Shown: positions 1,777-2,507 of the stretch, in pieces
Numbering within the stretch: the stretch's first letter is position 1
Layout of the letters: each line of letters opens with the position of its first letter
From: Escherichia coli
GTDB lineage: Bacteria; Pseudomonadota; Gammaproteobacteria; Enterobacterales; Enterobacteriaceae
Direction: 5' to 3' (one strand)
Assembly (NCBI RefSeq): GCF_003018115.1
Contig: NZ_CP027457.1
DNA: 64,000 nucleotides
Made by a program: the position numbers and the translations under genes
Notes under the pieces: generated by a model
Told to the model about the DNA's origin: nothing
Database searches by the model: none
Seen by the model: the letters and a program-made list of their open reading frames with translations, nothing else

Positions 1777-1971
1777 AAATCCGCCTCCGTTTTGATTAAC
1801 GGGCATCATTATTGATCGATAAAAGTAATAGATAAATCATTTTCTACCTGAAAATCAGATTATGTTTTTTCTGATTATCCTCAGAGAGGCAAAGCCATTG
1901 ACGCATTTTTGCTATTGAAGCAATATTAAGACTCGTCATCCTGGCGATAAAAACTCCTTTGTCGTGTAAAA

Positions 1972-2008
1972 GCGCCTCCGGTAACAGCAATCGGGGGCGC
2001 TTTTTTTT
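1972..2008 (+). terminator. Rho-independent terminator-like hairpin (GCGCCTCC / GGGGGCGC) followed by T8
   Basis: GC-rich stem with 13-nt loop and a T8 run read directly from sequence; no annotated plus-strand gene upstream. Confidence 0.45.
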
Positions 2009-2182
2009 GCGCCTGTTTTTTGTAAATGTTTTCGGGAACGTTCCAGTGATGAACAAAAAACAACCCGATTCGACACTAAAAATTTTTATTCCTCAATATA
2101 TCAATAGCTTATAGTGGTGGTGATGGTGCCATAAAAATCAAAAAATGCGCCTTTTTCCGCGCCCCTCCGCCCCGTGGACAGG

Positions 2183-2190
2183 CCCCCCCC
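2183..2190. repeat. C8 (G8 on minus strand) homopolymer tract in intergenic region
   Basis: cccccccc read directly from sequence. Confidence 0.9.
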
Positions 2191-2205
2191 ACCAGGAGTA
2201 CCTAC

Positions 2206-2227
2206 AAAAAAGCCGGATTGCTCCGGC
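2206..2227 (-). terminator. Rho-independent terminator of the minus-strand replication operon
   Basis: Hairpin GCCGGAGCAATCCGGC followed by TTTTTT on minus strand, 8 nt after the stop of ORF 2235..2507. Confidence 0.6.
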
Positions 2228-2234
2228 TGTGTGA

Positions 2235-2507
2235 TTAGCTGTCTTGGTAATTACACCATATTTCATCGCTTACACCATCTATACCCATTTCAGCATAAGT
2301 GCGATCTACTGCCTTTCTCAGGTCTCCGAAGTTATCCGGCGGCTCCGGTGGCCTCTGTGCCTTCCTGGAACATTCCAGCCGTCGCATCGTAACCTGATGC
2401 CGTTCCTTGTCTGTCTCCACCAGCTGCATGACTTCACCCCATCGCGCCGCCGCCCTCCGGTAAAATCCTTTCGCCTCGAGTTCCTCCGCTATGCGGTCAT
2501 GTATCAT
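2235..2507 (-). CDS. Small protein (90 aa), possibly a PerC/Pch-family transcriptional activator
   Basis: ORF track; N-terminal ...AEELEAKGFYRRAAARW... resembles my recollection of PerC-family proteins; not verified. Confidence 0.45.
   Translation of the reverse strand: MIHDRIAEELEAKGFYRRAAARWGEVMQLVETDKERHQVTMRRLECSRKAQRPPEPPDNFGDLRKAVDRTYAEMGIDGVSDEIWCNYQDS

Follow-up and report, generated by a model that had tools for sequence, protein, structure and literature searches.

A probable helper-phage-type cos site between the perC-family and capsid genes of an EcCICFT073-like chromosomal island in Escherichia coli

The region described here lies in the window, by which we mean the whole 64,000-nt stretch of Escherichia coli DNA that was analysed, and belongs to an EcCICFT073-like phage-inducible chromosomal island (PICI) of ~10 kb at tRNA-Pro (9344-9420). 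By annotation taken from a near-identical relative (L001), the island carries int, an HTH regulator, an Icd-like gene, DUF4222, the RepA helicase, perC and capsid genes, adjoins the tRNA-Pro and follows the gene order of EcCICFT073. The hallmarks of Gram-negative PICIs are present: a size in the ~10-15 kb range, a specific att site with an integrase, a regulator of the AlpA HTH type, and a primase/helicase with an adjacent iteron origin (iterons at 2746-2962); lysis and tail genes are absent, and packaging-related genes occupy the far end. The gap under study is bordered by the following genes:

1..1585, minus strand: ClpP-protease/major-capsid fusion gene, next after the 64-aa gene
1582..1776, minus strand: first capsid-module gene, 64 aa, phrog_4934, function unknown, with an SD sequence GGAGG at 1785-1789
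2235..2507, minus strand: perC-family gene (Pfam PF06069, E = 1.2e-43; RefSeq annotation)

The perC-family gene closes the replication/accessory operon of the island and is itself accessory, its place being taken by ssb in the related islands L010 and L011. The sequence-only reading had described 1810-2235 as a non-coding gap; the non-coding part of that description stands, and the boundary is to be corrected to a slightly longer gap, since 1776, and not 1809, is the most likely start of the downstream gene, as judged from the SD sequence and the RefSeq annotation (64 aa). The full-length gap was found in 143 of 5,426 complete E. coli genomes. Searching with the pattern CTTTTRTCGATCAATAATG yielded 59 useful loci in viral contigs and, in genome contigs, 2 chance matches from unrelated bacteria; when the 64-aa protein was used as query for related loci in genome contigs, no confirmed match was obtained.

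The open reading frames of the gap are these:

1844-2056, minus strand: 70 aa
2138-2266, minus strand: 42 aa
1959-2114, plus strand: 51 aa

That the gap holds no convincing ORF, as had been claimed, was borne out. The 70-aa and 42-aa minus-strand frames, the two that were tested, matched no PHROG family; RefSeq annotates none of the gap ORFs in the closest relatives; and in about half of the relatives a TGG-to-TAA change puts a stop into a 31-aa minus-strand sub-ORF (ATG at 1936-1938). This in-frame stop, together with the lack of a family match and of a RefSeq call, led us to reject the small-ORF readings. A 75-aa ORF was considered as an Rpp/TerS-like protein and rejected, with no match among PDB chains or Pfam; RppA of EcCICFT073 is a different gene, of 144 aa. 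The absence of a plus-strand gene upstream of the hairpin and T8 tract at 1972-2008 was likewise confirmed.

By homology to phage sequences, the minus-strand stretch 2043-2205 is a cos module with the order cosQ-spacer-cosN-cosB. It is 90.4% identical over 167 nt to the cos of CP-1639, the homology ending ~30 nt before CP-1639 terS; in the Stx phages CP-1639 and 1720a-02, both ~90% identical over 167 nt, the segment lies between Rz and the small-terminase gene. The sub-region 2043-2210 was matched in 1,924 of the 5,426 complete E. coli genomes, in at most 8 places per genome. In the two prophages that were examined, the match has the lysis genes on one side and the small terminase (phrog_141, E = 5.7e-69) on the other, and after the latter come TerL, portal and a ClpP/MCP fusion. 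Direct MAFFT alignment of the island with lambda was uninformative, and the homology is visible via intermediate phages. We consider it highly probable that the gap serves the EcCICFT073-like PICI as its packaging and regulatory junction, with a core cos captured from lambdoid helper phages. This reading draws on computed homology, synteny, conservation and terminator structures, from which we infer cleavage, TerS and IHF binding, insulation and promoter activity. The sequence-only reading had assigned to the gap a terminator and probable head-operon control, both of which stand, and had missed its main function, a cos site of ~160 nt that includes the C8 tract. The parts of the module are as follows:

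2197..2203, minus strand: cosQ-equivalent heptamer AGGTACT, placed by alignments, 24 nt before the predicted nick
2183..2190: C8 tract (G8 on the gene strand), in the spacer between cosQ and cosN
2149..2175, minus strand: cosN core ACGGGGCGGAGGGGCGCGGAAAAAGGC, with the invariant blocks CACGGGGCGG and GCGCGGAAAAAGGC
2043..2148, minus strand: cosB-like segment whose phage homology extends to the start of the small-terminase gene
2099-2111, within cosB: IHF consensus, plus-strand TATCAATAGCTTA / WATCAANNNNTTR, conserved in all aligned sequences
2043-2065, within cosB: conserved T-rich element GGTTGTTTTTTGTTCATCACTGG
2014..2062: perfect inverted repeat of 10 bp, TGTTTTTTGT / ACAAAAAACA, on either side of the palindrome GGAACGTTCC (2035-2044)

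The two cosN blocks are invariant in 6 of 6 aligned phage and island sequences and align with the lambda junction ACG/GGGCGGCGACCT/CGCGG; by analogy, GGGCGGAGGGGC (2161-2172) would form the 12-nt cohesive end, the exact nick positions being predicted ones. The core occurs once in the window, where 0 occurrences are expected by chance, and the record of phage mEp460_4F5 starts at it, with CCACGGGGCGGG. The cosN interior reads AGGGG here versus GC-GG in the closest phages. Ends of IMG/VR contigs near cos cores were considered as virion ends and rejected: the expected nick lies 3 nt beyond them, and they coincide with repeat boundaries. Assembly breaks at repeats explain them best. The cosQ heptamer agrees at 5/7 positions with the GGGTCCT of lambda and CP-1639, which in both lies 23-24 nt upstream of the core; Wieczorek and Feiss are said to have reported in 2001 that the lambda cosQ heptamer is GGGTCCT, ~23 nt upstream of the nick. 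Among parsed window-type relatives, AGGTACT is found in 21 and GGGTCCT in 11. Judged from its sequence, cosB would be bound by IHF and TerS, and the inverted repeat at 2014-2062, the arrangement of which recurs in VT1-Sakai, may speculatively represent distal TerS-binding (R-like) elements of cosB.

The C8 tract, which had been put forward as a feature of interest in its own right, lies in the G-rich, 24-nt cosQ-to-cosN spacer and is one of only two C/G runs of at least 7 in 64 kb. That emphasis was not sustained: among 32 parsed window-type ('type A') copies, the position holds G8 in 2, G7 in 1, GGGGGTGG in 14 and GGGGTGGG in 9, most copies thus having substitution-interrupted runs, and the phage spacer has GGGGTGGG there. 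We give next to no credence to the tract being a phase-variable (slipped-strand) switch for a gene or promoter. Run length does change, from G7 in the closest relative to G8 in the window and a stretch of 10 or more C/G where contig L055 ends, but the prevalence of GGGGGTGG or GGGGTGGG among relatives means that this is not a conserved switch; the tract also sits in the cosQ-cosN spacer, outside any conserved ORF and outside promoter-hexamer spacing, and the 42-aa ORF that overlaps it shows no length conservation and has no family match. Moreover, ~1.5 runs of at least 8 are expected by chance in 64 kb by our own estimate, and the C8 run alone is not remarkable.

It could be argued that the cos homology is an inert relic, that the gap is only a terminator and a late promoter, and that the island is packaged elsewhere or never. 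The cosQ-like heptamer of the window copy is indeed degenerate, in most relatives a second cos, with a perfect GGGTCCT, follows the capsid gene, and in EcCICFT073 one cos site out of two is dispensable (PMC6092414). However, the core is invariant and the whole of cosB remains ~90% identical to phage over 34 copies that diverge elsewhere, the gap cos is the sole cos of the closest relative, and islands with this cosB lack a TerS/Rpp gene, as expected for direct use; we therefore regard the relic as very unlikely. The island may nonetheless be defective, as its closest relative is without the second cos common to most relatives.

Within 1500-3000, 5 terminator-like sites were found versus 1.2 ± 1.1 in shuffles. 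A minus-strand terminator, the C8 tract and a plus-strand hairpin with T8 had been described in the gap, and all three were recovered at the same positions. The two hairpins and the plus-strand promoter candidate next to them are:

2206..2228, minus strand: intrinsic terminator T1, AGCCGGAGCAATCCGGCT + T6 (stem-loop 2211-2228, T6 run 2206-2210)
1972..2008, plus strand: hairpin T2 + T8, with a 9-bp GC stem and an 11-nt loop (hairpin 1972-2000, T8 2001-2008)
1898..1927, plus strand: sigma-70-like promoter candidate TTGACG-18-AATATT, not conserved

T1 (-12.6 kcal/mol, z = -4.25) ends the upstream replication/perC operon. Its hairpin abuts cosQ in every related island and subtype, whatever the upstream gene, and a T1-type hairpin precedes the lambda-type cos core of EcCICFT073. 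T2 is placed just past cosB. This feature is real and hardly varies: 30 of 34 relatives share the identical stem, the T-tract being 6, 7 or 8 nt long, and EcCICFT073 and L010 have an unrelated stem at the same position with the same A7...TTTT flanks. On the minus strand T2 is preceded by A8 and followed by TTTT. Its folding energy is -24 kcal/mol on the plus strand (z = -5.0; 0/200 shuffles as good) versus -18.1 kcal/mol on the minus strand, where a C.A mismatch stands in place of the plus-strand G.U. We read T2 as a bidirectional terminator or insulator that would act strongly on plus-strand (antisense) transcription. Since late transcription through cos is tolerated in lambda, a need for cos insulation is conjecture.

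The sequence-only reading had also suggested a small RNA, which would be a plus-strand transcript of ~75 nt with a start near 1935 and an end at the T8 tract (2001-2008), acting in cis as an antisense RNA or as an Hfq-type sRNA (for example, on a long capsid-operon leader), and which could coexist with cos. We regard this as unlikely. The promoter-like site on the plus strand has 9/12 matches, the hairpin with U8 is the more stable on that strand and is invariant in the 30 of 34 relatives noted above, and EcCICFT073-type islands have at the same position an unrelated hairpin with a strong antisense T7. However, in 18 of 34 relatives the -10 AATATT has become AGTATT, with loss of the key second-position A and with the hairpin intact; L016-type islands carry only a sense-oriented terminator there; and the T2 stem is essentially invariant and hence offers no covariation. 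An Rfam scan of 1-8000 at E ≤ 1 assigned no family, the only match being to ctRNA_p42d at 24.3 bits, below the gathering score of 50, and corresponding to the terminator alone. With this terminator-like match and a lone promoter candidate that is not conserved, the suggestion went unsupported. Esr41 and other EHEC island sRNAs were considered and rejected, Esr41 being located on SpLE1 and unrelated, and a preprint on the Pas sRNA, in outline, shows no link to the gap.

Control of the capsid operon maps to the low-coordinate end of the gap:

1807..1862, minus strand: conserved block of 56 nt, with a candidate -35 TTTATC (1831-1836) and -10 AATAAT (1808-1813)

In every island subtype this block is conserved ahead of the capsid operon, L031 and L047 included although they lack a cos at that position; 19 of its 56 nt were fixed by the search pattern. 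TTTATC-17-AATAAT is the only positionally conserved sigma-70-like pair and is weak, the -35 matching at 3/6 positions. From its sequence, the block is likely the promoter or operator of the capsid operon. The promoter or regulatory region of the head operon that had been predicted in the gap is thus probably present, on the evidence of a block conserved across otherwise diverged subtypes.

Across islands, the type of cosB tracks TerS gene content. By tblastn, a TerS- or Rpp-like ORF is absent from most of 33 window-type loci; four have a TerS match, at least ~8 kb from the capsid gene, and three of these are 76-100% identical to CP-1639 TerS. Among the non-A islands, the majority have a gene for a DUF1441 TerS homologue. 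Rpp-dependent cos PICIs are recognised by an rpp gene and an island-specific cosB, a combination that window-type islands do not have. A helper-type cosB without a TerS/Rpp homologue indicates that this subtype probably uses the helper terminase directly rather than an Rpp-retargeted one, as EcCICFT073 does, and sequence similarity makes CP-1639/1720a-02-like lambdoid phages, VT1-Sakai and the mEp460 group the probable helpers. Under the packaging-junction reading, the island would replicate upon induction, the helper's own small terminase (DUF1441/phrog_141 type) together with IHF would bind cosB, the large terminase would nick cosN, and packaging would begin toward the capsid genes and stop at the next cosQ-cosN. 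T1 would halt the replication/perC operon ahead of cos, T2 would block antisense (plus-strand) transcripts arriving from the capsid side and perhaps part of the sense transcription, and the capsid operon would be driven from the block at 1807-1862. A tentative extension, which we hold as possible rather than probable, is that the subtype without Rpp and TerS acquires complete cos cassettes of helper type, each accompanied by its own terminator upstream (CP-1639-type in the gap and, in most relatives, a second of VT1-Sakai type after the capsid gene), so that two lambdoid helper lineages could package one island; an antisense RNA gating the capsid operon might also terminate at T2.

In EcCICFT073, functional cos sites with lambda-like cosQ and cosN have been described, deletion of both abolishes transfer, and the divergent cosB is read by Rpp-TerS (PMC6092414, PMC6739421); its induction and high-frequency transfer by helper phage have been demonstrated (PMC6092414). 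The window island shares with it the island family, the gene order, the helper-like cosQ/cosN and the GC hairpin plus T-run directly before cosQ; dependence of packaging on helper terminase, demonstrated by experiment for EcCICFT073, would be a further shared trait. They differ in that the EcCICFT073 cos cores are identical to lambda (GGGCGGCGACCT) and lie after the capsid genes beside rppA, its PerC-to-capsid gap having no cos, and in that its cosB is island-specific and needs Rpp, whereas the window cos lies in the PerC-to-capsid gap with a helper-type cosB and no Rpp/TerS gene.

Lambda has the same order of cosQ, a 23-24 nt spacer, a cosN core ACGGGGCGG...CGCGG, an IHF consensus and repeated elements, and related phages share its placement of cos immediately upstream of the small-terminase gene. 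In contrast to lambda, the cosN interior and all of cosB are diverged, the cognate TerS is of DUF1441/phrog_141 type and not Nu1, and what comes after cos in the island is a terminator and capsid genes, not terS. Lambdoid Stx phages and prophages (CP-1639, 1720a-02; VT1-Sakai; the mEp460 group) carry cos regions that are direct homologues (90% over 167 nt for CP-1639), but have an AT-rich palindrome before cosQ instead of the GC terminator, a perfect GGGTCCT, the spacer GGGGTGGG and terS directly after cosB. Satellites that bear a helper cos and have no terminase of their own are represented by SaPIbov5 of staphylococci and by P4, with the cos of P2 (PMC6092414); the window island shares this strategy with them, whereas sequences, helpers and island families are unrelated. 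A cos between two terminators, upstream of the control region of the capsid genes, is an ordinary layout for such elements, and the gap is not a new kind of element, PICIs of this family being already known experimentally to carry helper-like cos sites.

The analysis identifies a packaging signal for a widespread, uncharacterised PICI subtype and predicts its helpers from sequence as CP-1639/1720a-02-like lambdoid phages, many of which are Stx-converting, which is of relevance to how islands with perC are mobilised among pathogenic E. coli. It further sets up a natural contrast with the Rpp mechanism, helper-type cosB without Rpp versus island-type cosB with a TerS homologue, and gives an annotation to a common unannotated 160-nt E. 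coli repeat as the cos of one lambdoid prophage group.

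A small integrated element makes up the leftmost 9.3 kb of this window. A near-identical copy of this island (L001; 98.5% identity across the gap between the perC/replication and capsid operons) is annotated with an integrase adjoining tRNA-Pro/yejM, an HTH regulator, an Icd-like protein, DUF4222, a RepA-family helicase, a hypothetical protein and PerC, followed beyond PerC by the gap, a 64-aa hypothetical protein, a ClpP-like prohead protease/major-capsid (MCP) fusion and a 93-aa hypothetical protein, this last group all on the minus strand. The gene order is that of EcCICFT073 (placed here at 2931-13655 of locus L073), a phage-inducible chromosomal island (PICI) studied by experiment (PMC6092414).

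Features of the island and its gap (window coordinates)
9344-9420: tRNA-Pro
2746-2962: iterons CTCACTTTT, direct and inverted copies, just 3' of the RepA-helicase gene and before the next gene
2228-2206, minus strand: intrinsic terminator T1 (stem-loop 2211-2228, T6 2206-2210)
2203-2197, minus strand: cosQ-equivalent heptamer
2190-2183, minus strand: G8 run (C8 at 2183-2190) in the 24-nt cosQ-cosN spacer
2175-2149, minus strand: cosN core
2172-2161: putative cohesive end, by analogy with lambda
to 2043, minus strand: cosB-like segment
2099-2111, plus strand: IHF consensus TATCAATAGCTTA in the cosB-like segment
2065-2043, minus strand: conserved element GGTTGTTTTTTGTTCATCACTGG in the cosB-like segment
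2014-2023 and 2053-2062: perfect 10-bp inverted repeat TGTTTTTTGT/ACAAAAAACA
1972-2008, plus strand: T2 (hairpin 1972-2000, T8 2001-2008)
1807-1862: conserved block TAATCTnnTTTT..TAGAAA....TTTATCTA..ACTTTTATCGATCAATAATG upstream of the capsid operon
1831-1836 (-35) and 1808-1813 (-10): candidate capsid promoter from a PWM scan

The iteron region, which includes a palindrome at 2864-2899, is likely the replication origin of the island; PICI origins are located 3' of the helicase gene, the same place as the iterons here (PMC6092414). PerC is an accessory gene, its slot holding ssb in related islands. The 93-aa protein 3' of the capsid gene belongs to phrog_1561, without assigned function.

The minus-strand terminator, C8 tract and plus-strand hairpin with T8 described in the sequence-only reading were all found where it had placed them, and terminator-like sites were over-represented in 1500-3000 (5 versus 1.2 ± 1.1 in shuffles). 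The gap was also non-coding, as that reading had held: its 70-aa and 42-aa ORFs had no match among PHROG families and no RefSeq annotation in the closest relatives, and in roughly half of the relatives an in-frame TAA interrupts a 31-aa sub-ORF. The downstream gene, whose 64-aa product matches phrog_4934 (no assigned function), probably starts at 1776 (SD GGAGG 1785-1789; RefSeq agrees), so that the gap is 1777-2234; the mechanical ORF 1582-1809 (75 aa, ATG at 1809) probably overshoots the true start by 11 codons. The proposed content of the gap, a late head-operon promoter and possibly a small RNA, was supported in part. By homology, the gap's dominant function is predicted to be that of a helper-type cos (packaging) site in a PICI.

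Of 5,426 complete E. coli genomes, 143 contained the full gap (95-99% identity) and 1,924 matched the sub-region ~2043-2210, at up to 8 places per genome and 73-91% identity. In the two prophages examined (O157 644-PT8; strain D10), as in phages CP-1639 and VT1-Sakai, the match lies between lysis genes (Rz) and a gene for a DUF1441 protein, which is a small terminase (TerS; phrog_141, E = 5.7e-69), and beyond which stand the large terminase, portal and ClpP/MCP fusion. Lambda-like phages carry cos between the lysis genes and the small-terminase gene. The best phage-database matches were 1720a-02 and CP-1639 (90% over 167 nt), and the mEp460_4F5 phage record starts at CCACGGGGCGGG. Alignment of phages and islands gave two invariant blocks, CACGGGGCGG and GCGCGGAAAAAGGC, with a short variable centre between them; the CP-1639 core GGGTCCTcctGGTGgggtgggcctgaacACGGGGCGGgcggCGCGG, which reads AGGTACTcctGGTGgggggggcctgtccACGGGGCGGaggggCGCGG in the island, is clearly homologous to the lambda cos junction (...GGGTCCTttccGGTGatccgacAGGttACG / GGGCGGCGACCT / CGCGG...). 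The core pattern occurred once in the window and 0 times in shuffles. Key positions of the IHF consensus were invariant in every aligned phage and island. The 10-bp inverted repeat was found in VT1-Sakai too and, with lambda's inverted 16-bp repeat just 5' of Nu1 as the model, we speculate that it could form distal TerS-binding elements.

The C8 run by itself is unsurprising, with two C/G runs of at least 7 in the 64 kb and an estimated ~1.5 runs of at least 8 expected by chance. This tract belongs to the cosQ-cosN spacer. In phages the spacer is GGGGTGGG; among islands of the window's type (type A; 34 copies from IMG/VR loci, L001, L002 and the window, 32 of them parsed for the spacer), 14 had GGGGGTGG, 9 GGGGTGGG, 4 TTGGTGGG, 2 G8 and 1 (L001) G7. 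These variants indicate that the homopolymer is a lineage-specific T-to-G substitution and that the spacer tolerates a 1-nt length change; a conserved or phase-variable element was rejected, as most copies have runs broken up by substitutions. Several IMG/VR contigs (at the starts of L055, L026, L059 and L071) break off inside the spacer, for example at ...GGCCTGAAC or a C/G run of at least 10; most likely the assembly broke there because the cos core is repeated, and these ends show that the run is variable in length or difficult to sequence. A second C8 (5127-5134, G8 on the gene strand), the one further C/G homopolymer of at least 7 in the 64 kb, lies at the junction of two small overlapping minus-strand island ORFs, 4903-5142 and 5117-5356, where a tract-length change would shift a reading frame.

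T1 (-12.6 kcal/mol, z = -4.25) is a standard terminator of the replication/perC operon and was conserved as the left border of all cos cassettes seen. Phages (L005 ~2480-2500; lambda, L009, 48450-48467) carry an AT-rich inverted repeat ATGATAAnCATTATCA and a T-run before cosQ, in the position of the islands' GC-rich terminator; cos regions of this kind may themselves conserve a hairpin in front of cosQ. T2 (-24 kcal/mol, z = -5.0; 0/200 shuffles as stable) lies 35 nt past the phage-homologous cosB, within island-specific sequence. Its stem was identical in 30/34 type A copies, with one common substitution in the other 4, and its plus-strand T-tract was most often 7 nt (20 copies), otherwise 8 nt (12 copies) or 6 nt (2 copies). 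As RNA, the plus-strand hairpin is the more stable (-24 versus -18.1 kcal/mol), pairing G.U at the site of a C.A mismatch on the minus strand, and the minus strand has only TTTT after the stem. At the equivalent place in EcCICFT073 and L010 stands an unrelated stem (GCCCGATAAG...) in the same A7-stem-TTTT arrangement, and in L016-type islands a sense-oriented GCCGGA...TCCGGC+T6. From this asymmetry, the conservation and the relatives' hairpins, we read T2 as a probable bidirectional terminator, strong against antisense transcription. T1 and T2 could jointly shield cos from transcription entering from both sides; lambda itself is transcribed through cos.

A plus-strand small RNA of ~75 nt could instead run from a promoter-like site (TTGACG-18-AATATT at 1898-1927) to T2, but the -10 is AGTATT in 18/34 relatives, in which the key A at its second position is lost and the hairpin stays the same, and Rfam gave nothing above threshold; we regard this RNA as improbable. 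The head-operon promoter is plausibly located in the gap, at the conserved block 1807-1862. This block, in which 19/56 nt were fixed by our search pattern, was kept in all subtypes, including L031 and L047, where it directly follows the upstream terminator with no cos between. TTTATC-17-AATAAT was the only promoter-like pair whose position is shared by all subtypes, and its weak -35 suggests that an activator is needed. In these islands the known master activator is AlpA (PMC11773190).

The two cos sites of EcCICFT073 resemble lambda and phi80 in cosQ and cosN; they render a plasmid transducible when cloned, and their joint deletion abolishes island transfer (Fillol-Salom et al.; PMC6092414, PMC6739421). 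Helper TerS, in a complex with the 144-aa island protein RppA, recognises the divergent cosB of this island (PMC6092414, PMC6739421). In L073 we located the cores of lambda type at 12556 (+), shortly ahead of the 144-aa gene, and at 13291 (-). The core at 12556, like that of the window, has a hairpin (GCCGGAGAAATCCGGC+T7) before it, which here abuts GGGTCCT; unlike the window, the PerC-to-capsid gap (L073 10209-10462) lacks cos, and T1 is directly followed by a second A7-hairpin-TTTT. Upstream of the EcCICFT073 capsid operon stands a perfect palindrome, ATGATTATAATCAT, with TATAAT on both strands, which may be an operator or promoter.

Subtypes were compared across 59 IMG/VR loci, retrieved with a pattern of 19 nt taken from the block upstream of the capsid operon, and fell into two main groups. 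Type A islands have a capsid fusion 92-99% identical to the window's (98-99% in nearly all), a CP-1639-like cosB in the gap and, in most of 33 loci, no TerS/Rpp-like gene, whereas L011/L016-type islands have ~62% capsid identity, an island-specific cosB and, in most, a DUF1441 TerS homologue (phrog_141). In the four type A exceptions the TerS match stood at the far end of the locus, with at least ~8 kb between it and the capsid gene; in three (L058 109-582, L059 10505-10978, L061 13020-13493) it was 76-100% identical to that of CP-1639 and 8-9 kb away. These three genes probably belong to a neighbouring prophage, and these island copies may sit next to or within a helper-type prophage. The correlation between cosB type and TerS gene content is what would be expected if type A islands used the helper's TerS directly.

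In most relatives (L029 9236-9526; most of L014-L072) a second cos-like core, oriented like the first, follows ~2.54 kb downstream, just 3' of the ClpP/MCP fusion gene, with 88% identity over 203 nt to the VT1-Sakai cos, cosB included; the gap cos is of CP-1639 type, and each has its own GC hairpin and T6 in front. L001 has the gap cos only; the window starts inside the capsid gene, placing the second-cos position outside its left edge. Cos sites in the PICI family are already established by experiment, and the subtype and position found here have not been specifically described before. The two cos types may mean a dual helper range, and we tentatively propose, with considerable doubt, that Rpp-less islands captured, as modules, two cos cassettes of different helper types, possibly plus an antisense RNA ending at T2.
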